A DNA stretch of 64,000 bases from a bacterium (lineage in GTDB: Bacteria > Patescibacteriota > Minisyncoccia > Portnoybacterales > UBA2143), in assembly GCA_043818835.1 (NCBI GenBank), contig JBDRFK010000010.1, forward strand, positions 9,507 to 73,506, read 5' to 3'. The translations under genes and the position numbers were made by a program. Position 1 is the first letter of the stretch. Each line of letters starts with the position of its first letter. Positions 2,057 through 47,667 of the stretch are shown one piece after another. The notes beneath the pieces are model-generated. The model saw only the letters and a program-made list of their open reading frames with translations. It was not told where the DNA came from and ran no database searches.

Positions 2057-2445
2057 TTGATCCAATTGCAGACATGTTAATACGTATCAAGAATGCGCAA
2101 TCTGTTAAACACAAAACGGTTGTTATTCCATTTTCCAAGATTAAGTTATCTTTGGCTGAGGTTTTAAATAAAAATGGTTGGCTTGGCGATATTAAAACTG
2201 GTGGTAAAAAAATTGATAAGTATATTGAATTGGAATTAAAGTATGATATAGATGGTCAGCCTCTAATAAAGGAATTGAAAAGAGTTAGTAAATGTGGTTG
2301 CAGAATTTATATTAAGAAAGATGAGATCAGGTCCTTACATCAGGGTTACGGTTTATCTGTGATTTCTACGTCGAAGGGGTTGATGTCAGATATGGAAGCT
2401 AAAAAAATAGGTTTAGGTGGAGAGGTAATCTGTCAAGTTTGGTAG
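2050..2445 (+). CDS. rpsH: 30S ribosomal protein S8
   Basis: [15 protein letters not shown]-terminus is diagnostic of S8. Confidence 0.95.
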
Positions 2446-2499
2446 TATTCTCAAAACTTGAAATTTGTAGTTTGAAACTAAAAATTTATTTTTGTATTT

Positions 2500-2533
2500 T
2501 AGTTCTAAGTTATAAGTTCTAAGTTATAAGTTT
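2500..2533. repeat. heptanucleotide tandem array (CTAAGTT/ATAAGTT x4) in the rpsH-rplF spacer
   Basis: agttctaagttataagttctaagttataagttt read directly. An 88-bp gap here is unusual inside an otherwise tightly packed r-protein operon. Confidence 0.7.
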
Positions 2534-3100
2534 ATGAGTAGAATAGGAAAACAACCAATTATTATTCCCGAAGGAGTTGAAGTTAAATTTGAGAATGGCG
2601 AAGTTGTGGTTAAGGGACCAAAGGGAGAATTAAAACAAGCTGTGTTATCACAAATGGACTTGTCTTTTAGTGACACCGAAGAGGGCGACAAAAAGATTAA
2701 AAGTTTACAAATTGTTCCTAAAAGAACAACCAAAAATAGTTCTGCTTTCTGGGGATTAACAAGAGCTTTAATTGCTAATATGGTCAAGGGTGTAACAGAG
2801 GGTTTTGAGAAAAAATTAGAGATTGAAGGAGTGGGCTATAGAGCATCTTTAGAAGGAACCAAATTGGTTTTGAGCTTAGGTCTTTCTCATCCTATTAATA
2901 TGGAGGCCCCTGATGGTATAACGTTTGTTGTTGAAAAAAATGTTATTACGGTTGCTGGTTTTGATAAACAGAAAGTAGGACAAGTTGCAGCAAAGATAAG
3001 AGATTATAAAAAACCAGAACCATATAAAGGAAAGGGGATACATTATGTTGGCGAGGTTGTTCGCCGTAAGGCTGGTAAGAAAACCGTAGCTGGAGAATAA
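2534..3100 (+). CDS. rplF: 50S ribosomal protein L6
   Basis: MSRIGKQPIIIPEGVEV... is the canonical L6 start. Confidence 0.95.
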   Translation: MSRIGKQPIIIPEGVEVKFENGEVVVKGPKGELKQAVLSQMDLSFSDTEEGDKKIKSLQIVPKRTTKNSSAFWGLTRALIANMVKGVTEGFEKKLEIEGVGYRASLEGTKLVLSLGLSHPINMEAPDGITFVVEKNVITVAGFDKQKVGQVAAKIRDYKKPEPYKGKGIHYVGEVVRRKAGKKTVAGE

Positions 3101-3110
3101 ATTTGAATAT

Positions 3111-3449
3111 TTGAATATGAATAATAGACAAAATAGGCACAAAAGAATTAGAGCAAAAATAATTGGCAAAAAGAGTTGTCCTCGTCTTTCTGTTTTTCGT
3201 AGTAATAAGCATTTGGATTTACAATTAATAGATGATGATCAAGGAAAGACAATAGCAAGCGTTAGAGATACAGAAATTGAAAAAAAGTTAAATAAAAAAA
3301 ATTTAGCTAAAGAGGCGGGTAAATTGATAGCTCAAAAAGCAATAGATAAAAAAATAGAAAAAGTTGTTTTTGATCGCGGGGGTTATAGATATCATGGGCG
3401 AGTCAAGGCTGTTGCTGAGGGAGCTAGAGAGGCTGGATTAAAATTTTAG
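3111..3449 (+). CDS. rplR: 50S ribosomal protein L18
   Basis: RHKRIRAKIIG...RLSVFRSNKH is L18-like. Confidence 0.9.
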   Translation: MNMNNRQNRHKRIRAKIIGKKSCPRLSVFRSNKHLDLQLIDDDQGKTIASVRDTEIEKKLNKKNLAKEAGKLIAQKAIDKKIEKVVFDRGGYRYHGRVKAVAEGAREAGLKF

Positions 3450-3479
3450 GATTTTGTTTAAATCCTAAGACCAAATATT

Positions 3480-4064
3480 ATGGACGATAAAAATAATCAA
3501 AATAATAAAGAGACAAAATTTAACCGAAAAAATTCGGCTCGTGGCGACAGTGAACGAGAATTTGATCAGAAGTTATTGGACGTGTCTAGAGTTGTTCGTG
3601 TTGTGGCTGGTGGACGTCGATTTAGATTTCGCGTTGTTATTGTTATTGGTGATCACAAGGGTAGGGTTGGCGTAGGTGTTGCTAAGGGACAGGATGTAGT
3701 AATGGGTATTGAGAAAGCTGTGATTAACGCTAAGAAAAATATGATTACCGTTAAAACGGTTAATGGAACCATTCCTCACGAGGTGGAAGGTAAGTTTAAT
3801 AGAGCTAAAGTCTTATTAAAGCCGGGTCGTGTTGGTGGTGGTATTGTGGCTGGTGGCGCTGTGCGTGTTGTCTGTGAATTAGTTGGTATCAATAATATCT
3901 CGGCTAAAATTTTAGGGCGAACTACTAATAAGCTTAATAATGCACGTGCGGTTATTGTGGCTTTGAAGGATTTAAGATCAGAAAAAGTATCTGCTTCTCC
4001 TAAAGAAAATTCTAAGATTAAAAATATTAAGAAGGCGAAAAAAGTAAAAAAGCAAGATAAATAG
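3480..4064 (+). CDS. rpsE: 30S ribosomal protein S5
   Basis: RVVRVVAGGRRFRFRVVIVIGDHKGRVGVGVAKG (S5 dsRBD) plus a C-terminal domain. No L30 gene follows. Confidence 0.95.
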   Translation: MDDKNNQNNKETKFNRKNSARGDSEREFDQKLLDVSRVVRVVAGGRRFRFRVVIVIGDHKGRVGVGVAKGQDVVMGIEKAVINAKKNMITVKTVNGTIPHEVEGKFNRAKVLLKPGRVGGGIVAGGAVRVVCELVGINNISAKILGRTTNKLNNARAVIVALKDLRSEKVSASPKENSKIKNIKKAKKVKKQDK

Positions 4065-4068
4065 ATAT

Positions 4069-4578
4069 ATGCAATTAAATCAATTAAAACCTAATAATAA
4101 AAAATCACGCAAGCGTGTTGGTAGAGGAGGAAAGAAGGGTACGTATGCTGGGCGAGGATTGAAAGGTCAGAAGTCAAGATCTGGTAAGGATCTTCGTGTT
4201 GGTTTCGCTGGTGGTGATACTTCAACGATAATGCGTTTACCAAAACAGCGTGGAACTGTTGGTCATACTCATATACGGAAGGGAACAAAATTATCGAGAT
4301 ATACTCCTGATTGGGCGGTTTTTAATTTGGGAGATATAGATAAACTTTTTAAAGAAGGAGAAACTGTTTCGCCAAAATCATTGCTTGAGAAAAAAGTGAT
4401 CTATCGGGTTAGAAATAAAATTCCTTCAATTAAAATATTAGGTACCGGAAAATTAACAAAAAAAATTAAGTTTGAAGATGTTAAATTGTCCAAAAGTGTG
4501 AAAAAGGTTTTAGGCATTACAGATAAAAAGAAGTCAATTAAGAAGGAAAATATTAAAGACAAGAAAAGTGAAAAATAA
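4069..4578 (+). CDS. rplO: 50S ribosomal protein L15
   Basis: LKPNNKKSRKRVGRGGKKGTYAGRG Gly/Arg-rich L15 N-terminus. Confidence 0.9.
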   Translation: MQLNQLKPNNKKSRKRVGRGGKKGTYAGRGLKGQKSRSGKDLRVGFAGGDTSTIMRLPKQRGTVGHTHIRKGTKLSRYTPDWAVFNLGDIDKLFKEGETVSPKSLLEKKVIYRVRNKIPSIKILGTGKLTKKIKFEDVKLSKSVKKVLGITDKKKSIKKENIKDKKSEK

Positions 4579-4588
4579 CTAACTACTT

Positions 4589-5872
4589 ATGAAGTGGTAT
4601 CAAAAAGTTGTCCAAGTTTTTAAAATAAAGGATTTGCGGAAGAAGATTTTTTTCGTTTCAATAATGCTTGTTATTTTTCGTATTGTGGCGAATGTTCCTT
4701 TACCGACTATTGATACATCGCAGTTGAAACAATTTTTTGCTGGTAATCAACTATTTGGTCTTTTGAATATTTTTACAGGTGGAGCGTTAAGTAATTTATC
4801 TATTGGAATGTTGGGTATGGGTCCATATATTACCGCTGTAATTATTATGGAACTTTTAACAATGATATTTCCTGCTCTTGAAGCTCTTTATAAAGAAGAA
4901 GGTGAAGCTGGTAGACAAAAATTTAATCAATATGGGCGTTTATTAACGATTCCATTAGCGTTGTTACAGGGTTTTGCTATGTTGACCTTATTAAGTCGTC
5001 AGAATATTATCGGTCATTTGTCTATGTTTCAATGGTTTACGTCTTTGGCGCTAGTATGTGCTGGGGCTGTTTTTGTGATGTGGCTTGGCGAACTGATTTC
5101 TGAAAAAGGTATTGGTGATGGTGTTTCTATATTGATTTTGGCGGGTATTGTGGCTCATGTTCCTTTGTCTGTTAAAGAAATTGTTGTTACTTATGATCCA
5201 TCAAAGATCCCAGCATATATTGCCTTTCTTATTTTAGCATTAGTTATTACAGCAGGTGTTGTTATTATTAACGAAGGTCGTCGTAATATTCCAGTATCTT
5301 ATGCCAAACAAGTGCGTGGTAACAAAATGTATGGTGGTGTTTCAACCTATCTTCCATTAAACGTTAATCCAGCAGGTGTTATTCCAATTATCTTTGCGTT
5401 ATCAATTATGCTTTTCCCAGGGATGATAGCTAGTTTTTTAGGGACTTCAAGTATTGGATGGTTAGCAAGTTTTGCGCAATGGGTGGGTGCGCTATTCCAG
5501 AATCAGTGGTTTTATGGCAGTATTTATTTCGCCTTAGTGGTTTTATTTACATATTTTTATACAGCAGTCACGTTTGATCCAAAGAATGTGGCAGAAAACT
5601 TGCAAAAGATGGGTGGTTTTATTCCGGGGATTCGTCCAGGACAGCCAACAGTTGATTTTCTTTATCATATTTTAAATAGAGTCCTTTTGTTTGGAGCAGT
5701 ATTTTTAGGGACAATTGCAGTTTTGCCGTCTGTCGTTCAGGGCGTTACTGGCGTTCAAGCCTTTGGTTTTGTTATTGGCGGTACAGCGTTATTGATTATC
5801 GTTGCTGTAGTTTTAGATACTTTAAGACAAATAGAATCCCAGCTGACTATGCGGGATTATGAGGGGTTTTAA
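4589..5872 (+). CDS. secY: preprotein translocase subunit SecY
   Basis: 427 aa, 10 TM segments, conserved position after rplO. Confidence 0.95.
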   Translation: MKWYQKVVQVFKIKDLRKKIFFVSIMLVIFRIVANVPLPTIDTSQLKQFFAGNQLFGLLNIFTGGALSNLSIGMLGMGPYITAVIIMELLTMIFPALEALYKEEGEAGRQKFNQYGRLLTIPLALLQGFAMLTLLSRQNIIGHLSMFQWFTSLALVCAGAVFVMWLGELISEKGIGDGVSILILAGIVAHVPLSVKEIVVTYDPSKIPAYIAFLILALVITAGVVIINEGRRNIPVSYAKQVRGNKMYGGVSTYLPLNVNPAGVIPIIFALSIMLFPGMIASFLGTSSIGWLASFAQWVGALFQNQWFYGSIYFALVVLFTYFYTAVTFDPKNVAENLQKMGGFIPGIRPGQPTVDFLYHILNRVLLFGAVFLGTIAVLPSVVQGVTGVQAFGFVIGGTALLIIVAVVLDTLRQIESQLTMRDYEGF

Positions 5873-6098
5873 ATTTTAAAATAAGGAGATGTTGTTATGG
5901 ATGGAATAATAATTTGGCACTCTGTTCATAGAGATAATGGAGCAATTACGGGAAGTTGTTTAGAAAAGTTTACCGGTTAGGATGATGAGACATTGGTAAA
6001 ACATATTAATAATACAATTATGATTAACAAAACTCGTTTTGGGTTTAGAATTGTTCATCAGATATTGATAACTAACGAAAATAAATAAGATTTCTAAT

Positions 6099-6121
6099 GT
6101 CCCCTGACGATGTCGGGGGAC
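6099..6121. other. GC hairpin (gtcccc-N11-ggggac) in the 290-bp secY-adk spacer
   Basis: Inverted repeat read directly. No following T-run, so not a clear intrinsic terminator. Confidence 0.3.
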
Positions 6122-6163
6122 TAATACGTTGTAGTTATCTATATTGAGTGCTAACATATAACT

Positions 6164-6835
6164 ATGTCAAAAGTATATATAATCTATGGCGCACCGGGGT
6201 CGGGGAAGGGGACGCAAGCCAATTTGTTGGCTGAAAAGATGGGGGTGATTCATTTTGATACTGGATATGCGATTGAGAAAAAAGTACATAATCCAGATTT
6301 GCAAGATGATTTGATAATTCAACGCGAAAAAAAAATGTTTGACGAAGGTGTTTTGTGTACGCCTGAATGGGTGGCGCAGATAGTTGAAGAAGCGATAGAA
6401 AAGATACATAGAAAAGGAAAAGGAATTGTCTTTAGTGGATCGCCAAGAACTTTGCCGGAAACAAAAACATTTATCCCACTTGTCGAAAAATTATATAACA
6501 GAGAAAACATCAAGATTATACGCATCAATGTTAAACCAGAAACATCTATTTACAGAAACAGTCATCGGCGTGTATGTAAAAATTGCGGTTTGTCTTTGGT
6601 TTATACGCCAGAAAATAAAAAATTAGATAAATGTCCGAAATGTGGTGGCAAATTGATAAAAAGAGTTTTAGATAAACCAGAAACGATTGAGGTGCGATTA
6701 AAAGAGTTTAATAAAAGGACAGAGCCGATTTATGAATTTCTAACAGACAAAGGATATGAGATTGTAGATATTGATGGCGAACCATCGGTAGAGGAAATTC
6801 ATCAGGATATTTTGTTCCAAATCAATCACGAATAA
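6164..6835 (+). CDS. adk: adenylate kinase with zinc-binding lid (CxxC...CxxC)
   Basis: P-loop GAPGSGKGTQA; lid CKNCG...CPKCG. Confidence 0.9.
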   Translation: MSKVYIIYGAPGSGKGTQANLLAEKMGVIHFDTGYAIEKKVHNPDLQDDLIIQREKKMFDEGVLCTPEWVAQIVEEAIEKIHRKGKGIVFSGSPRTLPETKTFIPLVEKLYNRENIKIIRINVKPETSIYRNSHRRVCKNCGLSLVYTPENKKLDKCPKCGGKLIKRVLDKPETIEVRLKEFNKRTEPIYEFLTDKGYEIVDIDGEPSVEEIHQDILFQINHE

Positions 6836-6881
6836 TTATTTTTAATAATTCGTGATAAAATTAGTGATTGATTAGAGATTT

Positions 6882-7628
6882 ATGATTCCAATTAAAAGTC
6901 AACAAGAAATAGAAATAATGAAAGAAGGTGGGCGTTTTTTAGCCGGCATAATTAAGGAATTGGAGAACAAAGTTGCGCCTGGAATATCTACAAAAGAATT
7001 GGATATAATGGCAGAAAAACTAATTTTAAAAGTTGGCGCTACACCATCATTTAAGGGATATAATCAATTTCCATCTGCTTTGTGCATTTCTGTGAATAAT
7101 GAAATTGTGCATGGCGTACCATCAAAAAGAATATTAAAAGACGGCGATATTGTCAGCTTAGATTTGGGAATTTTATACAAAGGATTTCATACAGATATGG
7201 CGGTAACAGTACCAGTAGGCGAGGTATCATCTGAAGCAACTCGCTTGATTCGTGTAACAAAAAAATCGTTGAAGCGCGCTATCGCCAGAACAAAAGAAGG
7301 CAGAACAATTGGCGATATTGGTCATGCGGTGCAGAATTATGTTGAAGAACAAGAATTTGGCATAGTGCGTGAGTTGTGTGGTCATGGAGTTGGACGTGAA
7401 CTGCATGAAGATCCAGAGGTGCCAAATTTTGGACAAAGACATAAGGGCCCGAAACTTAAAAGCGGAATGGTATTAGCAATAGAGCCGATGGTAACAGTGG
7501 GTGATTGGAAAATTAAATTATCGCCGAATAGACTTTGTTTTGAAACAAAAGATGGGTCTTTATCTGCTCATTTTGAACATACGGTTTTGGTGACAAATAC
7601 TGGAGGAAAAGTTTTAACAACTATTTAA
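6882..7628 (+). CDS. map: type I methionine aminopeptidase
   Basis: 248 aa pita-bread fold with metal ligands (D..D..H..E..E pattern); conserved position after adk. Confidence 0.9.
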   Translation: MIPIKSQQEIEIMKEGGRFLAGIIKELENKVAPGISTKELDIMAEKLILKVGATPSFKGYNQFPSALCISVNNEIVHGVPSKRILKDGDIVSLDLGILYKGFHTDMAVTVPVGEVSSEATRLIRVTKKSLKRAIARTKEGRTIGDIGHAVQNYVEEQEFGIVRELCGHGVGRELHEDPEVPNFGQRHKGPKLKSGMVLAIEPMVTVGDWKIKLSPNRLCFETKDGSLSAHFEHTVLVTNTGGKVLTTI

Positions 7629-16181: not shown

Positions 16182-17609
16182 TTGATTATGGACTTAAAAT
16201 TATTAACAATCAAAAAAATCCAGAAAGGATTAGCAAATAAAGAATTTACTGCAGAAGAAATTGCGCAGGCTGTTTTTGACCGTATAAATGAAAAAGAAAA
16301 AGATATTCATGCTTATTTAGAATTGATGAAAGAAAGCGCATTAAAACAGGCAAAGGAAATAGATGAAAAAATTAAAAACAATGAAGATATAGGTGTTTTA
16401 GCGGGCGTCCCGATTGCGATTAAAGATAATATTTTGGTTGATAGCGTTAAATGTACAGCGGCATCAAAAATCTTAGAAAATTATATTGCGCCTTACGACG
16501 CGACAGTTATTAAAAAATTAAAAAGCGAGGATGCGATTTTAATTGGCAAAACAAATTGTGATGAATTTGCTATGGGTTCATCAACAGAAAATTCTGCTTT
16601 TGGACCGACAAAAAATCCACATGATCTGGAAAGAGTGCCGGGTGGTTCTTCTGGTGGTTCTGCGGCGGCCGTGGTAGCAGACGAATGTATTGCAGCGATA
16701 GGTTCGGATACAGGCGGATCAATTCGTCAGCCAGCATCATTTTGTGGCGCTGTTGGTTTTAAGCCGACCTATGGGCGAGTTTCGCGTTATGGGTTGATGG
16801 CTTATGCTTCTTCACTTGATCAAATTGGACCCTTGGCAAAAGCAGCAGAAGATACAGAGATAATTTTGAATGTGATTGAAGGACAGGATAACAATGATTC
16901 TACAAGCGCGTCAGATGAAAAATATAAAAATGATGAAGCGATAGATATTAAAAAATTAACTATTGGTATTCCTAAGGAATATTTTGTTGAAGGCATAGAT
17001 TCAAAAGTGGAAAGCGCAGTTCACAAGGCAATCTCCGAATACGAAAAGGTAGGCGCCAAGATTGTGGAAATTAGCTTGCCATACACAGAGTTTGCTTTAG
17101 CAAGTTACTATATCATCTGTACCGCCGAAGCATCATCAAACTTGGCAAGATACGACAGTATTCGTTATGGATTATATAAAAAAGGAAAGAACCTCTTGGA
17201 TGGTTATACAAAGACACGACATGAAGGTTTTGGCGATGAAGTAAAAAAAAGAATTATGCTTGGCACTTATGTCTTGTCGGCGGGGTATTATGATGCCTAT
17301 TATTTAACTGCGCAAAAAGCGCGTACTTTAATCAAAGATGATTTTGTAAAAGCATTTAAAAAAGTTGATGTGATTATGACGCCAACCAGCCCGACAACCG
17401 CTTTTAAAATTGGTGAAAAAATGAATGATCCAGTGGCTATGTATCTATCAGATATCTATACTGTTTCTGTAAACTTGGCTGGTTTGCCAGCTGTATCTAT
17501 TCCATGTCAGAAAGATGGTTTGCCAATCGGTTTACAAATTATCGGCAATCAATTTGAAGATAAAAAAGTTTTAAAAACGGCTCAAATTTATGAAAACATT
17601 TCTAATTGA
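16182..17609 (+). CDS. gatA: Asp/Glu-tRNA amidotransferase subunit A (amidase)
   Basis: Amidase signature [13 protein letters not shown] and catalytic Ser-cisSer-Lys context. Confidence 0.95.
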
Positions 17610-18129
17610 ATTTTACGATAAATTTATTGTCAATTGGCCTGTCTGGTTTGATAAATGGCAGGAGAATATTTTTTATCTAAAAATAATTTTTGTTGGTATT
17701 TCAATAGTTTTATTTATTGGAATTATTTATTACATCATTCTTATTCGTCGTGATATTAAGAAATATTTTGAATTGATTATTGATAGTGTAGAAGCGCCGA
17801 AGGTTCCTAAAAAGAAAGTCACCAAACAATGGGAGGGGATTATACAAAAATTGGAAAGCGACAATACGAGCGATTATAAATTGGCAGTTATTGAAGCAGA
17901 TAAAATGTTAGATGAATTATTAAAAAGGATTGGTTACAAAGGCGATGATATGGGCGCGCGATTAAAGCAATTGACATCAGCACAGGTGCCAAATCTGAAC
18001 GAACTTTGGTCGGCGCATAAGGTGCGTAATCGCATTGCTCATGAATCCAATTTTAATTTAACACGCGAAACAGCTCGCCGAGCGATTGATGCTTACGAAC
18101 GAACATTTGAAGAATTAGAGTTGTTGTAA
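17590..18129 (+). CDS. hypothetical membrane protein with an alpha-helical C-terminal domain (possible HEPN-like R-x4-H motif)
   Basis: TM segment, then KVRNRIAHE in a predicted helical ~110 aa domain. Weak assignment. Confidence 0.4.
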
Positions 18130-18305: not shown

Positions 18306-18908
18306 ATGCTTGAATCAATGTGTGGTTATTTGTCTGATTTATTGCCATTTTCAGAAGAGAATGTGCTAACTCCTGAAAAAGCGTGGGAAAAGGTAGAATT
18401 TATTATTATGCCAGAGGTTGCAGAAGATAATAAAAAGTATTTTTTTAAAAGTTATATTGTTTTTTACAATGCTTTATTACTTTTGCGAGAAAGATACCAG
18501 TTTTATTTGCAAGTTCTAGAAAGAAATACTCAAGTAATGGACCAGTTTGCAGAAAAGATGGGAGATATATTATTGAATGAACGAATTGTTTTTGCCATGC
18601 ATCATTGTTTTACTTATGGACAAAAAATGTCAAAAACGCTTGAGGATATAATCAAAGAATTTCCTGCGGAATGTCTTAAACATTTTAACAAAAGACCGTC
18701 AATAGATGTTGGGCAACCGATGACCGATTGTAAAATAACAGGTATTTGTGTTTGCTTAGGAAAAAAACCGCCGTATATGCATTCTTGCCTTGTTGGTAAT
18801 CTTTCTGGTTTGATGCGAGACAAACAAACGCAAGACAAACAATGGGACGAAGTATTTGGTGTTGTCGGCAAGGCAATGGATAATCATTTCAAAAGCTTAG
18901 AAAGATAG
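18306..18908 (+). CDS. hypothetical protein (Cys-containing, no recognisable domain)
   Basis: Strong SD (taaggagag-N6-ATG) and a terminator follows. First gene of the accessory block. Confidence 0.6.
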   Translation: MLESMCGYLSDLLPFSEENVLTPEKAWEKVEFIIMPEVAEDNKKYFFKSYIVFYNALLLLRERYQFYLQVLERNTQVMDQFAEKMGDILLNERIVFAMHHCFTYGQKMSKTLEDIIKEFPAECLKHFNKRPSIDVGQPMTDCKITGICVCLGKKPPYMHSCLVGNLSGLMRDKQTQDKQWDEVFGVVGKAMDNHFKSLER

Positions 18909-18943
18909 GATAATAATTACAATTAATAAAATAAAAAAGCCAT

Positions 18944-18979
18944 TACTAAAGTAGTGGCTTTTTATCTTAATTCTGCGGG
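18944..18979. terminator. intrinsic terminator after ORF 18306..18908
   Basis: aaaaaagccattac-taaa-gtagtggcttttt: 8-bp stem with one G-U pair plus T-run. Confidence 0.7.
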
Positions 18980-19237
18980 GCTTGCGGGACGATTTCAGAA
19001 CTCTTGATTGGGTAGAAATAAGGAATAATTTGGGAGAGTTTGGATTTGTTTACCAATTTTAAAACCTTTACAAAAACGATTAAGTGTGGCAAGCTATATA
19101 TTAGCTGTTTAACAATTAAAAAAAGTCCTCACTTGAGTCATAATTTATGGTGCAATTATGTTAAATGAAAATTAGTATAACTAATTTTAAGCCTAATTTA
19201 TGATAAAAAGTTACAGGCACGAAAGGAGGAAAAGGTT

Positions 19238-19363
19238 ATGGCACAAAAGGCAATAGTAGCTAGGTTTAGTACTATCAAGAATAAAAAACCTAAGCTCTTT
19301 CCGATGCGTGCGCACTCTATGAAGTGCCAAGGGCAATGTACTTGTAAATGTTGTAAAAATTAG
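19238..19363 (+). CDS. putative RiPP precursor peptide, 41 aa, Cys-rich C-terminus (MAQKAIVARFSTIKNKKPKLFPMRAHSMKCQGQCTCKCCKN)
   Basis: Not in the ORF track (below the 60 aa cutoff). Excellent SD (gaaaggagga-N8-ATG). 5 Cys in the last 12 residues. Directly upstream of a rSAM/SPASM enzyme. Confidence 0.6.
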   Translation: MAQKAIVARFSTIKNKKPKLFPMRAHSMKCQGQCTCKCCKN

Positions 19364-19389
19364 ATAAGTTTTTTTAACGGTTTTGAAAA

Positions 19390-19420
19390 TGGGGGGATAG
19401 GCTAAATCAGTTTATCCCCC
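19390..19420. promoter_or_regulatory. stem-loop between precursor and maturase (ggggggata-N13-tatccccc)
   Basis: 9-bp GC-rich stem read directly. No T-run, so it looks like an attenuator or RNA-stability hairpin, as is common between RiPP precursor and enzyme genes. Confidence 0.5.
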
Positions 19421-19446
19421 TACCTATTATCAAAAAGGAATGCAGT

Positions 19447-20451
19447 ATGAATGAGTTAGTCAGTTTAAAATCACCATTGTCAGTTAATTTTGAGGTGACA
19501 CCTCTTTGTAATTTGTTTTGTGAATTTTGTTTTAACGCGAGGGATGAATGTCAAAATATTAATCATCCGTCATTATCACAAGTTAAAGCTATTTTAGCCG
19601 AATTATCTAAGGCTGAAGTTTTCGAAGTGAGATTGTTTGGAGGAGAATTTTTTATTTATCCTCAATGGCAAGAAGTGCTTGAATATGCCGATCAGTTAGA
19701 TTTTTTTCTATCATTTGTGTCTAATGGCACGTTCATTACGCCACAAGTTGTAAAAAAGCTAAAACAGCATCGTGTTATTGGCGGAGCTATTTCATTACAT
19801 GGACCAAAAGATATTTATGAGAAGATTTGCGGTGTTGAAGGTGCTTTTAACTTAACAATAAATGGCATAAAAACATGTATAGAAAATGATATGGATATTT
19901 CTATTCTTTATACGCTTACTAAGACAAATTATCTGCTATTTTTTGAAACTGTAAAATGGTTAAAAGAAAATGGAATCGGTATTGACGAGATTAATGTTGG
20001 ACGACTAACTCCATATGGTAGAGCTAAATCTGATTGGGACGGAGTAAAACTTTCGTTCGAGGATTATATGAAAGTTTTTTATCAATTGGAAAAAATCAGA
20101 AATGAATTAGATATTTTGGCTAATTTGGGGGATGCATTTCCGTTGTGCTTGTTGCCATCTAAATACCATGATTTTGTGATTGGTTGTTGGCAAGGAACAG
20201 GATTTGGACATATTGATTATCAAGGCAATGTTCGTTCATGTTCAATTACTAAGGGTAATTATGGTAATATTTTAGAGACTTCTTTGGTTGAAATTTGGAC
20301 TAATCGTCTGGGTTATTTTAGATCCTTAAAATGGCTTCCTAAAAAATGCCAAAATTGCAATAATTTTTGTGGGGGTGGATGTTCGGCTTCCCGTTATGAG
20401 GGAGGTATTTATGCTCCAGATGAATTTATAGTTTTAGGAGAAAAATCATGA
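19447..20451 (+). CDS. radical SAM enzyme with C-terminal SPASM-type Cys cluster (peptide-modifying maturase)
   Basis: CNLFCEFC (CX3CX2C) at residues 21-28. C-terminal CQNCNNFCGGGC plus upstream Cys residues resemble SPASM/twitch auxiliary clusters. Confidence 0.85.
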   Translation: MNELVSLKSPLSVNFEVTPLCNLFCEFCFNARDECQNINHPSLSQVKAILAELSKAEVFEVRLFGGEFFIYPQWQEVLEYADQLDFFLSFVSNGTFITPQVVKKLKQHRVIGGAISLHGPKDIYEKICGVEGAFNLTINGIKTCIENDMDISILYTLTKTNYLLFFETVKWLKENGIGIDEINVGRLTPYGRAKSDWDGVKLSFEDYMKVFYQLEKIRNELDILANLGDAFPLCLLPSKYHDFVIGCWQGTGFGHIDYQGNVRSCSITKGNYGNILETSLVEIWTNRLGYFRSLKWLPKKCQNCNNFCGGGCSASRYEGGIYAPDEFIVLGEKS

Positions 20452-20708
20452 TAAATCCAAGTTTTATTCCTAAAATTAATTGTCGTTTCAAAATTAGAAA
20501 AGATATTGATTGTCATATTGGTTTTTTTCAAACAAAGGGAGTATTAACCTTCAATGACATCGGGGCTTTTATAGTTAATCAAATGATTGGCAATAAAAGT
20601 ATTCAGGAAATTGCAGATTCAATTTCATCAGAATATTCCGATATTGAGAATCCTCTTGAGGAAGTGGTGAATATAGTTTCTCAATTTCAAGACTCGGGAT
20701 TTCTGTGA
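20448..20708 (+). CDS. PqqD-family RiPP recognition element (peptide chaperone)
   Basis: 86 aa; LTFNDIGAFIVNQMIGNKSIQEIADSISSEY...EEVVNIVSQFQDSGFL fits the PqqD pattern. Start overlaps the rSAM stop (ATGA). Confidence 0.75.
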   Translation: MINPSFIPKINCRFKIRKDIDCHIGFFQTKGVLTFNDIGAFIVNQMIGNKSIQEIADSISSEYSDIENPLEEVVNIVSQFQDSGFL

Positions 20709-20715
20709 GTGCATG

Positions 20716-20761
20716 GCGACCAAGAAAGCAAAAAAACTTGCTCTTGGTCGCTTTTCGTTTT
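20716..20761. terminator. intrinsic terminator closing the precursor-rSAM-PqqD operon
   Basis: gcgaccaaga-N16-tcttggtcgc: perfect 10-bp stem followed by ttttcgtttt. Confidence 0.8.
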
Positions 20762-20774
20762 ATCATATATAAAT

Positions 20775-21377
20775 ATGAGTGTTAATTTTTTATCATCAAA
20801 AAAACAGGAATTAGAAAAACTTTTAGATATTTATGATGAATATCAATGGTTTATTGATAACGATTTTCCTATTTTTTTGCCTAAATTTTATAATAAATTG
20901 TATTTACAGACGAAAGACAATAAAAAGGAATTTAAAGAAAAATTAATTTTAGAGTTTAATAAGATTTATGATAAAAATATTTATCAAGAGAAAAAAGAAA
21001 TTGCCAAGAATCAATGGCAAAAGGTTGAAAAAGATTTTTTTAATGTTTTAATAAAACTTGGCTTGAAGCTTGAAAAAGATTATTTTTGCTATATTTCATT
21101 ATATGGACCAGAAGGACAATTCTATTATCCAGAGACAATTAATATTAGGATACTTATCGATAAAGATATTAAAGAGGTTGGTGTCACCATTGCTCATGAA
21201 ATAATTCATCTTGCGATATTTAATAAAGTTCAAAAATTAAAATTGAGCTATGATCAGATTGAGGAGATTGTAGATTTATTTTTTACAGAAACCAAACTCA
21301 AAAATATTTTTCCCGATTATAAGCTACAAAATATAGCTGTGCATGATAAAAAATTGCTTGAAGAGATATTAATTTAA
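20775..21377 (+). CDS. hypothetical protein with HExxH motif (putative zinc metallopeptidase)
   Basis: Start taken at MSVNFLSS, after the terminator. VTIAHEIIHLAIF motif. Confidence 0.5.
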   Translation: MSVNFLSSKKQELEKLLDIYDEYQWFIDNDFPIFLPKFYNKLYLQTKDNKKEFKEKLILEFNKIYDKNIYQEKKEIAKNQWQKVEKDFFNVLIKLGLKLEKDYFCYISLYGPEGQFYYPETINIRILIDKDIKEVGVTIAHEIIHLAIFNKVQKLKLSYDQIEEIVDLFFTETKLKNIFPDYKLQNIAVHDKKLLEEILI

Positions 21378-21435: not shown

Positions 21436-21864
21436 GTGATTAACAAAATTTTACAACAAAAAATATTAAAAATGGAAAAGGAAGACCAAGAATTGCGAGA
21501 GAAAGCTATAAAAGATAATCAAAATAAAAAATTAATTAAAGCTGTTTATGATTGCGATACCAGAAATATAAGAGAAGCTAAAAAGATAATAGAAAAATAT
21601 GGTTATCCGATTTTTAGTCTTGTGGGCAAAAAAGCGTCTTATGGTTTTTGGCGAATAATCCAACATGCCGACAGAGATGTTAAATTTCAAAAAAAATGTC
21701 TTAAATTGCTTGAAGAGGCAGTTGGTAAAAAAGAGGCATATAAAAAAAATTTAGAATTTTTGACAGATAGAATAATGATTATGGAAAAAGGAAAACAAAA
21801 ATACGGAACGCAATTTATGTATGATAAAAAAGGAAATTTGGTTAAATATCCTTTGATTAAATAA
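21436..21864 (+). CDS. hypothetical protein (conserved domain of unknown function)
   Basis: 142 aa, helical; no catalytic motif recognised. Confidence 0.5.
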   Translation: MINKILQQKILKMEKEDQELREKAIKDNQNKKLIKAVYDCDTRNIREAKKIIEKYGYPIFSLVGKKASYGFWRIIQHADRDVKFQKKCLKLLEEAVGKKEAYKKNLEFLTDRIMIMEKGKQKYGTQFMYDKKGNLVKYPLIK

Positions 21865-21867
21865 TTT

Positions 21868-22221
21868 ATGAATCAATCTATTGATCAATATCTAAAATCG
21901 GCTAAAAAAGAATTAGATGATTTTTTTGGTATTGATGTGGATTTGCCAGAAGTTTGTTTTATTAACTCTCGAAAACACTATGACGAGATGATGGGTTGGA
22001 AAACAGAAGAATATATGGTCGGACACGCCAAGGATGGCAAAATATATATTCTACATCCAGATATTTATGTTCAAGAATCAAGCCATAAAAGCATTGATAG
22101 CTTTTGGAAAGTATTAAAACATGAATATTGCCATATATATTTTAGAACTATAACAACTATAACAAAGATAGGGTATCCCAAATGGCTTAATGAGGGATTG
22201 GCTTCTTATCTTACAGGTTAA
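21868..22221 (+). CDS. peptidase MA-like (HExxH ... WLNEGLAxY) protein; in-frame TAA at 22219, frame stays open to 22470
   Basis: HEYCHIYF...PKWLNEGLASYL matches the Peptidase_MA_2 pattern. An 83-codon protein-like extension follows the TAA with no start or RBS of its own. Confidence 0.6.
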   Translation: MNQSIDQYLKSAKKELDDFFGIDVDLPEVCFINSRKHYDEMMGWKTEEYMVGHAKDGKIYILHPDIYVQESSHKSIDSFWKVLKHEYCHIYFRTITTITKIGYPKWLNEGLASYLTG

Positions 22222-22449
22222 GAAAAAGACGAACCAAAAGAAGAGGATAAATTTAAAATCTTTTACTATTTTCAAAAAAATGATTGGCAGACAGGGATAA
22301 TAGGGTATTATTGGGTTAAGTTATTGATAGATAAATTTGGCAAAGATAAATTATTGGGATTATTAAAATCTTTGCATCTCGATATTACAGAAGAAGAATT
22401 TTCGGAGAGTTTTAAGAATGTTTATAAAGTTGATTTTTCGGAGGAGGGG

Positions 22450-22818
22450 TTAAAAAAACTCCTTATTTAATTTTAGAAGATTCCCAAGGGCTGATATAAA
22501 ATTATAACTTTCTGCATATTTTATGAAATTTCTTTGTTCTTCAATAGTATTTAGAGCCTCGGCATATCGCTTAAAATTATCTATGCTTTTGCCCATATTT
22601 TGATTATCAATTGATTGACTAGTTAATTGGAATATTCTTTTTGATAATTGTTCTGCAACCGGCAGTGTTTGTTTTATCTTTTTAGTATGTAATAGCAGTC
22701 TCTTCCTTTCTTTTTTAGAAAATAGGAATATCAAAAAAACAATTGGCACTGTTCCTCCAATTACAGTAAAAAAAGAATAAATTAAAGGTACTATCATGTT
22801 GTTTAAAATAAATTGCAT
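22450..22818 (-). CDS. hypothetical small membrane protein
   Basis: N-terminal TM helix; no recognisable domain. Confidence 0.4.
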   Translation of the reverse strand: MQFILNNMIVPLIYSFFTVIGGTVPIVFLIFLFSKKERKRLLLHTKKIKQTLPVAEQLSKRIFQLTSQSIDNQNMGKSIDNFKRYAEALNTIEEQRNFIKYAESYNFISALGNLLKLNKEFF

Positions 22819-22878
22819 AACACCAATCTCAAAAAAAACACTATATTTAAATGTTCCTATAATAAAATAAACTAGTTG

Positions 22879-22952
22879 CGGGGCCGATGGGATTTGAACC
22901 CACGATCTTCTGCGTGACAGGCAGACGCATTAGGCCACTATGCTACGACCCC
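22879..22952 (-). tRNA. tRNA-Asp (GTC)
   Basis: Minus-strand cloverleaf GGGGUCGUAGCAUAGUGG...; anticodon loop CUGUCAC; T-loop GGUUCAAAUCC. Confidence 0.85.
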
Positions 22953-22971
22953 AATGATATTTAGTTTTCAG

Positions 22972-23046
22972 TAGCGGCGGAGGGACTCGAACCCCCGACC
23001 TGAAGTTTATGATTCTTCCGCTCTAAACCAACTGAGCTACGCCGCC
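22972..23046 (-). tRNA. tRNA-Met/Ile2 (CAT), elongator type
   Basis: GGCGGCGUAGCUCAGUUGG...; anticodon loop AUCAUAA; T-loop GGUUCGAGUCC. Confidence 0.75.
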
Positions 23047-23103
23047 ATAAAACTATTCCAAATCTTGATTTGGTAAACAACTAATGATATTTATAAAATA
23101 CTT

Positions 23104-23178
<75 letters not shown>

Positions 23179-47139: not shown

Positions 47140-47667
47140 AGTTCTTAGTAAATTAGTAAGCCGAATTCTGTTATACTATTTTGTCATTATCCGGTTTGAC
47201 TGGATAATCTAGAAATAATATAGATGATCATCTATCTGGGATTGATATTACTATCAACCTCTAGCGAGCTACTTGTCTTACCCCACAATAGTGGGATAGT
47301 TTGCTCTTGCACCGGGCAGGGTTTGTCACGCTATTACGTTTCCGTAAAGCGAGAAGGGTCTTAATCCTTCACTTTTCATCCTTACCAAGTTTATGTCATT
47401 CTGAACGGAGCGAAGCGGAGTGAAGAATCTCGTAGAACTTGCCACGGGATTCTTCGGGCTTTGCCCTCAGAATGACGACTGGGCGGTTTTGTTTCTGTGA
47501 CACTTTCCCTAGACTTTGCTTTAAACAATTTGTCTCGAGAACAAATTACTTAAAACTACTTCCGACGGATGTTATCCGTTGCCCTTTTTTTATGGTGTTC
47601 GGACTTTCCTCCCCGCACCACTTTTTTTGAAAAGTAGTGGAGGCAATCATCTTATTTACTAAGAACT
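47140..47667 (-). ncRNA. rnpB: RNase P RNA (bacterial type A) carrying a palindromic mini-element at the P12 position
   Basis: Minus strand shows P1 pairing (AGUUCUUAGUAAAU/AUUUACUAAGAACU), P3 hairpin, GGGGAGGAAAGUCCGAACACCAUA...GGGCA (P4 5' strand), CACAGAAACAAAACCGCC, GGUAAGGAUGAAAAGUGAAGG, CCCGGUGCAAGAGCAAACUAUCC and ACAGAAUUCGGCUUAC (P4 3' strand). All match conserved M1 RNA blocks in order. Confidence 0.8.
47394..47476. repeat. palindromic mini-element copy I, located inside rnpB between the ACCGCC and GGUAAGG blocks (P12)
   Basis: TGTCATTCTGAACGGAGCGAAGCGGAGTGAAGAATCTCG...GGGATTCTTCGGGCTTTGCCCTCAGAATGACG. Confidence 0.8.

Follow-up and report, generated by a model that had tools for sequence, protein, structure and literature searches.

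Bacteria of the candidate phyla radiation (CPR, or Patescibacteria) have tiny genomes in which biosynthetic gene clusters are usually reported to be scarce or absent; one survey recovered none in its Patescibacteria metagenome-assembled genomes (MAGs; PMC11613949), and another recovered nine (PMC8692599). What, then, is encoded by a compact locus in a genome of the Portnoybacterales (lineage UBA2143), in which a small Cys-rich open reading frame (ORF) is followed by a radical SAM/SPASM enzyme and a PqqD-like protein? The locus lies in a 64,000-nucleotide (nt) stretch of contig JBDRFK010000010.1 (assembly GCA_043818835.1), the whole of which is referred to here as the window. An original prediction, made from the letters of the window, described the three genes as an operon for a peptide that is made by the ribosome and then modified post-translationally (a RiPP), of ranthipeptide/sactipeptide-like type. 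Our analysis revealed a fourth conserved gene, and we consider it likely that the locus is a four-gene radical SAM RiPP cassette of about 2.3 kb that depends on a RiPP recognition element (RRE) and works by the mechanism proposed below. Coordinates are those of the window, and features lie on the + strand unless stated otherwise.

The first gene, which had escaped annotation, encodes the putative precursor peptide of 41 amino acids (aa) (MAQKAIVARFSTIKNKKPKLFPMRAHSMKCQGQCTCKCCKN; 19238-19363). As predicted, it is preceded by a strong Shine-Dalgarno site (AAGGAGG at 19223-19229, 8 nt before the ATG), and five Cys codons fall among its final 12. The peptide joins a leader motif, (A/R)KFS(V/T)(L/I)K, to a core of the form KC-x-G-x-CTC-x-CC(K)(N); in the window it ends in CCKN and contains no Tyr, and the core is devoid of aromatic residues. 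Relatives of the enzyme are encoded at 28 genome loci, 26 of which have enough upstream sequence for the precursor to be counted, and in 26/26 of these a small ORF with a terminal Cys cluster is positioned directly 5' of the enzyme gene, with one precursor-type ORF per cassette. Among 10 clade-A genes (45 pairs), the whole ORF is under purifying selection, with a median pN of 0.26 against a pS of 0.81, the synonymous sites being almost saturated and the non-synonymous ones constrained. The only residues shared by all 26 precursors are G32, C34 and C36, that is, G-x-C-x-C, so that any chemistry common to the family must act on this element. A leader motif x-F-S-x-[LIV] is present in nearly all of them, its Ser being nearly invariant, whereas the C-terminal tail varies (CCK, CCKN, CL, CN, CNSG). 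No precursor (0/26) matches any NCBIfam model at E <= 10, the SCIFF model included, and the window precursor has no Pfam match; in a collection of 5.8 billion sequences the family matches only 28 protein clusters, none of which carries a name.

The small ORF is not only conserved in related genomes but also changes its type together with the enzyme, as four precursor types follow four enzyme clades. Clade A, which includes the window, has enzymes 69-77% identical to that of the window, a discrete RRE and precursors of the type ..AKFSVLKG..P...MR...KCxG[QE]CTC[RK]CCK(N). Clade B (46-50% identity) has a fused RRE and ..VGVFSVVxGKRGS...TKCxG[QE]CTCRCCK, and clade D (48-51%) a discrete RRE and ..RFSPV....GxCKC[KR]C[KR]CN. 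The most distant, clade C (34-40%), has ..ARLSML....SSQCAGMC[RK]C(x), and its RRE is fused in at least some members (e.g., L027 and P0098).

The second gene (19447-20451) encodes the putative peptide maturase of 334 aa, identified by Pfam, by its homologues and by an AlphaFold2 (AF2) model. The radical SAM motif and C-terminal Cys cluster noted in the original prediction are both confirmed, and the protein passes the Pfam cut-offs for Radical_SAM (PF04055; 69.3 bits against 29.5) and SPASM (PF13186; 29.3 against 21.5). The SAM-cluster motif is C21-x3-C25-x2-C28, its three Cys being invariant in 35 sequences, and seven auxiliary Cys (C234, C247, C265, C301, C304, C308 and C312) are invariant in the enzyme alignment. 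A search recovered 107 homologues. When a profile of 35 members was compared with solved proteins, the nearest were RiPP maturases, namely SkfB (1.4e-30), SuiB (1.6e-19), CteB (2.5e-18) and PqqE (5.3e-18), and MoaA was only a distant match (1e-9). Similarly, the closest folds to the AF2 model (pLDDT 90) were SuiB, SkfB, BlsE and anSME in a Foldseek search, SuiB being the best match (E 1.6e-16, TM score 0.72) and anSME standing among the top neighbours with a TM score of about 0.7.

A housekeeping role, such as that of MoaA, QueE or anSME, had been named as a finding that would overturn the prediction. No NCBIfam equivalog, housekeeping families included, reaches its cut-off with the enzyme. 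The best scores, each given against its cut-off, are AhbD 107/500, WgkB 103/650, NirJ1 94/650, MftC 92/265 and NirJ2 91/500, followed by SkfB 59.8/300, PapB 59.6/340, PqqE 59/381, AlbA 47.4/850 and not_ScfB 42.8/855; the SCIFF maturase model, against which the prediction proposed to test the enzyme, is absent from the 25 best matches. In addition, housekeeping neighbours (Moco genes, heme genes or a sulfatase) are neither present beside the window cassette nor conserved across the loci.

The third gene (20448-20708) encodes a PqqD-family RRE of 86 aa. Its start codon overlaps the stop codon of the enzyme gene as ATGA, through which the two genes are translationally coupled. The predicted PqqD pattern is borne out by a match to PF05402 (31.3 bits against a cut-off of 23.4), and the NCBIfam PqqD equivalog scores 21 against 46. 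In about 15/107 enzyme homologues, found in clades B and C, a PqqD domain is joined to the enzyme C-terminus to give proteins of 460 aa, and the 86-aa protein is 43% identical to the fused C-terminal domain of relatives (E 2e-16). These fusions provide independent evidence for a functional link between the RRE and the enzyme.

Between the precursor and enzyme genes lies the stem-loop that had been noted in the original prediction, here called hairpin 1 (19390-19422; folding free energy about -21 kcal/mol). All loci (26/26) have a stable hairpin here although the sequences are unrelated, with z < -2 relative to shuffled sequence in 25/26 and a median uninterrupted stem of 12.5 bp; hairpin 1 is conserved in structure, not in sequence. 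A canonical intrinsic terminator is ruled out, as a T-rich tail occurs in just 4/26 loci and the window hairpin has no T-run after it. Hairpins following bacteriocin or RiPP precursor genes are usually read as stabilizing the precursor mRNA, as partial attenuators, or both, and by analogy hairpin 1 is probably a stabilizing or attenuating structure that sets the ratio of precursor to enzyme.

The same arrangement, with its run of terminal Cys codons followed by a conserved hairpin before the gene of an Fe-S enzyme, could also be expected if the small ORF were a regulatory leader peptide, that is, a Cys-codon-rich attenuator. We regard this as very remote, since the leader motif is preserved as a protein sequence, purifying selection acts on the ORF as a whole, a dedicated RRE for peptide binding is present as a gene or as a fused domain, and the precursor type co-varies with the enzyme clade. 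Moreover, hairpin 1 lacks a U-run in 22/26 loci, and no alternative antiterminator pairing was apparent on inspection of the hairpin sequences, no formal search having been made. A RiPP precursor–enzyme relationship between the 41-aa peptide and the radical SAM enzyme is, in our judgement, very likely.

Behind the RRE gene, the perfect 10-bp stem of the predicted intrinsic terminator was confirmed (hairpin 2; 20715-20761, stem GCGACCAAGA/TCTTGGTCGC followed by TTTTCGTTTT). In the corresponding gap between the PqqD gene and its downstream neighbour, z is below -2 in 18/19 loci and a T-rich tail is present in 14/19; hairpin 2 is a real terminator. The three genes therefore form one transcription unit, as predicted, closed by a conserved terminator, but the functional unit does not end there. 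An all-against-all comparison of ORFs revealed that a gene for a zincin-like protein of about 200 aa with an HExxH+E signature (20775-21377) lies directly downstream in every locus with enough sequence and is the sole further conserved neighbour. Synteny, signature residues and fold mark it as the fourth gene of the cassette, and the alignment places its start at the ATG at 20775 rather than at the GTG at 20709.

The fourth gene appears to be transcribed separately. An SD-like motif precedes its start in 0/22 loci, and a putative -10 box (TATCAT; 20761-20774) is located 8 nt before the start codon in the window, where no Shine-Dalgarno site is found. Across these loci, the pattern TAnnnT occurs exactly 6 nt before the start in 14/22 and at 5-8 nt in 17/22. 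By the same test, the pattern was seen at 0/26 precursor starts and 0/23 enzyme starts, the enzyme starts having a Shine-Dalgarno site in 23/23. With no SD and a -10-like box close before its start, the gene is probably transcribed from a promoter of its own as a leaderless mRNA.

The HExxH protein belongs to a family without a name. All of its 155 homologues are annotated as hypothetical and none carries a Pfam domain; in a search of 1.84 billion cluster representatives (clusters at 50% identity), 475 clusters, all of about 170-280 aa, match the family profile at E <= 1e-3. Ten sampled representatives yielded no above-threshold Pfam family, nine having no match at all and one a sub-threshold match to DUF3920, and no entry for the family was found in NCBIfam, Pfam or the literature. 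Nevertheless, P36, G111, H141, E142, H145 and E163 are invariant in 40 diverse members, and E163, 18 residues past the second His of HExxH, completes a gluzincin signature typical of hydrolases. The fold matches are to zincins, with peptidases as the best (M1/LTA4H and thermolysin included), and the sub-threshold Pfam matches of the family are to SprT-like (33/37 members), M76 and DUF2268. From these features we lean towards a small zinc peptidase that would act as the leader peptidase, a reading to which we give modest preference.

A function other than leader removal, be it in tailoring (e.g., as an alpha-ketoglutarate/Fe HExxH-type oxygenase), in immunity or in regulation, appears rather unlikely. 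It would suit the probable promoter and leaderless mRNA behind the terminator, which imply separate regulation, and self-immunity genes are often found under a separate promoter arrangement. HExxH oxygenases are also established RiPP tailoring enzymes (PMC12636437). Against it stand the gluzincin signature and the peptidase matches just described, as well as two points that bear on the oxygenases in particular: the family profile finds no PDB chain at E <= 10, the alpha-ketoglutarate HExxH chain 8s5f included, and the protein is far shorter than that matched chain (200 aa versus 342 residues). Compared with the HExxH proteins of known RiPP clusters, both the MA-clan leader peptidases and the alpha-ketoglutarate oxygenases, it shares the position beside a radical SAM maturase and the zincin-like fold, but differs in reaching no family cut-off, in its length of only about 200 aa and in its leaderless separate transcription.

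Gene content, domain identities, synteny, precursor–clade co-variation, RRE fusion and RNA signals, all of which were observed directly, are consistent with the following mechanism. The 41-aa precursor would be translated from its strong Shine-Dalgarno site, and its KFSVLKG-type leader motif would be bound by the PqqD-family RRE protein, whose domain is fused to the enzyme in other clades. The RRE would then offer the Cys-rich core at the C-terminus to the radical SAM/SPASM enzyme, which may modify the G-x-C-x-C core by 5'-deoxyadenosyl radical chemistry with the help of its auxiliary Fe-S clusters, the products being most likely intramolecular Cys thioether crosslinks of sactionine or ranthionine type. 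The HExxH+E protein, made from a leaderless mRNA with its own promoter, would most likely remove the leader, and the hairpin after the precursor gene would probably keep precursor mRNA in excess over enzyme mRNA.

The thioether is put forward as the most likely product because the core is Cys-dense, SkfB and CteB rank among the nearest relatives, and cyclophane or Trp crosslinks would need aromatic residues that the core lacks; as an argument by analogy it remains tentative. An alternative is that the cassette makes a RiPP by another chemistry, such as Cys oxidation to a thioaldehyde or formylglycine-type product (as by anSME), epimerization, or a new C-S or C-C link with the invariant Gly. 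The absence of a match to any sacti- or ranthisynthase model, the place of anSME among the top fold neighbours, an invariant core of only one Gly and two Cys, and the atypical spacing of the SPASM Cys all favour this alternative, and radical SAM chemistry is known to be poorly predicted by sequence similarity over the full length (PMC10288494). On the other hand, a core without aromatics makes cyclophane or Trp crosslinks improbable, and the closest solved sequence relative, SkfB, is a sactisynthase. Cys-rich cores paired with RRE-dependent SPASM enzymes have mostly proved to be thioether peptides. On balance we consider a non-thioether chemistry unlikely and retain the thioether as the tentative assignment.

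Several observations weigh against the proposed mechanism. Firstly, the SPASM region is unusual. C247-X12-G-X4-C265 fits the SPASM element CX9-15GX4C, with C234 as an extra Cys upstream, but the C-terminal cluster, C301QNC304NNFC308GGGC312, gives a second element CX2CX3CX3C that departs from the canonical CX2CX5CX3C and is, by alignment, two residues shorter than that of SuiB. The last SPASM Cys is missing as well, since beyond C312 the window enzyme contains no further Cys and the family no conserved one. With eight ligands needed for two [4Fe-4S] clusters, seven auxiliary Cys would leave one site open or call for a non-Cys ligand. CteB has an open auxiliary site that binds a substrate Cys, and PqqE uses an Asp as a cluster ligand; by analogy, a non-Cys ligand may be provided by D325, an invariant residue of the APDEF motif. 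Secondly, catalytic-site-proximity profiling by a published method (PMC10288494) could read three of six positions (F after CxxxCxxC; S-I after the GX4C Cys) and gave no clear match to a characterized sacti- or ranthisynthase. Thirdly, the invariant core is tiny, offers few acceptor residues and is unlike the CxxxD/N, SCIFF or hairpin-sactipeptide patterns. Finally, the cassette holds no exporter or immunity gene, and the HExxH protein shows no signal peptide or transmembrane segment on sequence inspection, from which it follows that its processing would be cytoplasmic.

Comparison with known systems revealed partial resemblance to each and identity with none. The cassette shares with SCIFF/ranthipeptides (CteA–CteB of thermocellin and PapA–PapB of freyrasin) a precursor of only about 40-60 aa whose C-terminal core is Cys-dense and an RRE-dependent SPASM maturase, CteB being one of the nearest solved relatives of the window enzyme. 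However, 0/26 precursors match the SCIFF model (TIGR03973), the PapB model scores well below its cut-off, the RRE is discrete or C-terminal here but N-terminal there, and the core lacks their CxxxD/N or Thr acceptor pattern. The sactipeptides (SkfA–SkfB and subtilosin AlbA) resemble it in that SkfB is closest by profile and a top fold match and in the Cys donors of a small peptide; bacteriocin operons, too, commonly have a hairpin behind the precursor gene. SkfB has a twitch-like single auxiliary site. By contrast, the cassette enzyme has seven auxiliary Cys, the SkfB and AlbA models score far under their cut-offs, and neither a hairpin-type donor/acceptor layout nor an exporter or immunity gene is seen. 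The ranthipeptide/sactipeptide-like label of the original prediction holds as a resemblance to SkfB and CteB but not as an assignment, the SCIFF and sactisynthase models having given no match. Streptide (SuiA–SuiB) and the RaS-RiPPs (WgkB) are similar in their RRE-dependent recognition of a small peptide, with SuiB the best Foldseek match and WgkB the second-best NCBIfam score, whereas their links involve Lys/Trp or other aromatic residues and the cassette core has no aromatics, the WgkB cut-off is far from reached, and the RRE of SuiB is N-terminal.

The remaining comparison, with mycofactocin (MftA/MftB/MftC/MftE) and PQQ (PqqA/D/E), concerns the layout of the genes as much as the chemistry. 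A discrete PqqD-family chaperone, a SPASM enzyme, a separate peptidase-type gene and the absence of a transporter are common to both, and MftC and PqqE align full-length with the window enzyme; but the MftC, PqqE and PqqD scores lie below their cut-offs, the precursor has neither Val-Tyr nor Glu/Tyr targets, and downstream redox enzymes are lacking. Sequence-model and motif tests thus place the cassette in none of the SCIFF/ranthipeptide, sactipeptide, mycofactocin or PQQ families. The lack of an exporter and the cytoplasmic HExxH protein nevertheless leave room for an intracellular role, in which the peptide would be a cofactor-like or metal-binding product, after the logic of mycofactocin and PQQ, rather than a secreted natural product. 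Consistent with such a role are the absence of a transporter from the conserved unit, an RRE and a peptidase-like gene that are as separate as those of the mftB/mftC/mftE layout, the standing of MftC among the best full-length NCBIfam matches (residues 6-325), an HExxH protein without signal peptide or transmembrane segment, and a core rich in Cys and Lys/Arg that could bind metal. Yet the MftC score is far under its cut-off, the precursor has no Val-Tyr or Glu...Tyr motif, its C-terminal tail is variable, and no dehydrogenase or other cofactor-using partner is conserved nearby. In addition, the patchy, cassette-like distribution with unrelated flanks better suits an accessory trait, and we regard a cofactor-like or metal-binding product as quite improbable.

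Upstream of the precursor, the window has a 5' leader (19104-19229) that can be aligned, with a mean column identity of 73%, to the upstream regions of seven further loci belonging to two distant clades. It contains a boxA-like element GCTGTTTAACA (19104-19114), a block GTTAAATGAAAA (19160-19171), a small hairpin (19168-19188) with compensatory changes at two pairs, and the Shine-Dalgarno site. Altogether, a promoter/5'-leader module of ~190 nt is kept upstream of the precursor in eight loci, although the enzymes of the two clades are just 36-39% identical: the window (19104-19229), L004 (3633-3804), L008 (2397-2571), L012 (2279-2450), L023, L025 (3630-3799), L026 and L003 (1-124). Its elements follow the order of a TTGACA-N16-19-TAAnAT promoter, an 11-nt block GCTCTTTAACA (represented in the window by the boxA-like element), GTCAATAAAGTTAAATGAAAA, the small hairpin and the Shine-Dalgarno site; in the window the promoter hexamers are not clearly readable. 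The 11-nt block resembles the E. coli rrn boxA consensus, and the module could be a leader for processive antitermination, by which polymerase would read past hairpin 1.

A further copy, 250 nt long and 90% identical to the module of L012, was found in the metagenome contig L035 (reverse complement 3517-3763), where no precursor gene follows; about 600 nt downstream of the copy begins a 23S rRNA gene with a perfect promoter of its own. As L035 shares neither flank with L012, the module seems to have been reused or orphaned there. This was the one real copy in a metagenome scan for a 17-mer of the leader, in which 119/120 of the matches listed were due to chance, and the leader was not found in a scan of viral contigs. 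A 5'-UTR (untranslated region) hairpin as a feature of all loci was rejected, as the median z was -0.7 and only 6/26 loci fell below -2, and Rfam revealed no known RNA family in the cassette or leader.

How far does the cassette extend, and does it move as a unit? In L008, an exact tandem duplication of 2386 nt (2336-4721 = 4872-7257, with a 150-nt spacer), which is either very recent or an assembly artefact, runs from upstream of the promoter to 7 nt past the HExxH stop codon, and its ends mark the limits of the cassette unit. Long imperfect inverted repeats flank the promoter and the four genes in three clade-A loci (L004, L008 and L012); they measure 150 nt at 87% identity in L004 (3471-3620 and 5927-6076) and 75 nt at 80% in L012 (2195-2269 and 4581-4655), and the right arm starts within the last codons of the HExxH gene. 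These repeats suggest a module that can move or invert; no terminal inverted repeats were detected around the cassette of the window. Flanking genes beyond the cassette are not conserved across the loci, and the GC content of the surrounding block is slightly lower (0.26-0.33 versus about 0.30-0.39) without a sharp boundary.

Homologues with a named organism come overwhelmingly from CPR/Patescibacteria MAGs, labelled as Parcubacteria, Wolfebacteria, Liptonbacteria, Microgenomates, Saccharibacteria, Falkowbacteria, Roizmanbacteria, Peregrinibacteria, Collierbacteria, Buchananbacteria, Nomurabacteria, Kerfeldbacteria and Portnoybacteria; some records carry Gammaproteobacteria, Bacteroidota or Thermoplasmatales labels, which are unconfirmed. 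No curated model (NCBIfam or Pfam) and no paper describing the cassette family in CPR bacteria was found, though it may be present as an unnamed cluster in the large radical SAM RiPP compendia. The cassette is real, and its general logic of a radical SAM/SPASM enzyme, an RRE, a precursor and a peptidase is that of many known RiPP systems, while the family and its product are uncharacterized. As a compact RiPP cassette shared by many CPR lineages, it is a candidate for a function retained despite genome reduction, such as interaction with hosts or competitors, signalling or metal handling. At the speculative end, and in our view improbable as a whole, the minimal G-x-C-x-C core would carry an undescribed crosslink and define a new RiPP class, the seven Cys and a probable Asp ligand would constitute a SPASM variant, and the cassette would be a CPR-specific mobile module with its own promoter and leader (possibly with rrn-type boxA antitermination, and with 75-150-nt inverted repeats in some loci) whose product serves an episymbiotic lifestyle through host/competitor interaction or signalling. 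The small size of the cassette suits it to heterologous co-expression, and annotation would gain both an uncharacterized HExxH family of 475 clusters without a Pfam model, and an unnamed precursor family.

The surroundings of the cassette were only partly as the original prediction described them. Of the accessory block at 18.1-22.9 kb, said to hold otherwise unrecognizable genes, the 200-aa ORF directly 5' of the cassette (18306-18908) indeed has no Pfam or NCBIfam match; it contains several Cys and His, is not conserved beside the cassette elsewhere and is followed by a good terminator at 18934-18963. Two other neighbours, however, can be recognized. One is a DUF6624 protein (21436-21864; 54.5 bits) between the cassette and a split peptidase gene, which is likewise not conserved beside the cassette elsewhere. 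The other is that split gene itself, a Peptidase_MA_2 frame (21868-22470) 0.5 kb downstream of the cassette that is interrupted by a single TAA (22219-22221). Its 200-aa read-through product matches Pfam Peptidase_MA_2 on both sides of the stop (36.9 bits against 32.4), contains HEYCH...WLNEG and is 28% identical (E 4e-13) to a peptidase encoded in L030 beside a distant radical SAM/SPASM gene. The frame may represent a pseudogene, an error of sequencing or a gene expressed by read-through, possibly for a second RiPP-related peptidase.

In L030 (1-3400), a distant relative of the enzyme (28% identity) lies in another putative RiPP cluster, where its neighbours are a second radical SAM/SPASM gene, an ORF of 75 aa and genes for a Peptidase-MA-like HExxH protein and a DUF2268 protein; the distant enzyme relative P0104 (28% identity) adjoins Peptidase-MA-like and DUF2268 genes. 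Such distant relatives were set aside as clues to chemistry, as the context of P0101 is non-RiPP and P0104 belongs to a different radical SAM cluster.

The block lies next to a tRNA cluster, as described in the original prediction: genes for tRNA-Asp, tRNA-Met and tRNA-Met occupy 22878-23178 on the - strand, 1.5 kb from the window cassette, and the L004 cassette is ~250 nt from two tRNA genes (3064-3227), so such tRNA-proximal sites may be insertion hot spots. Further upstream, a 179-aa protein (17590-18129) has an N-terminal transmembrane-like segment and weak, sub-threshold matches to HEPN families (Swt1-like HEPN, E 4e-4). Elsewhere in the window, class A RNase P RNA (195 bits) is encoded on the - strand at 47141-47662, its 522 nt against a model of 367 positions implying insertions of ~150 nt.

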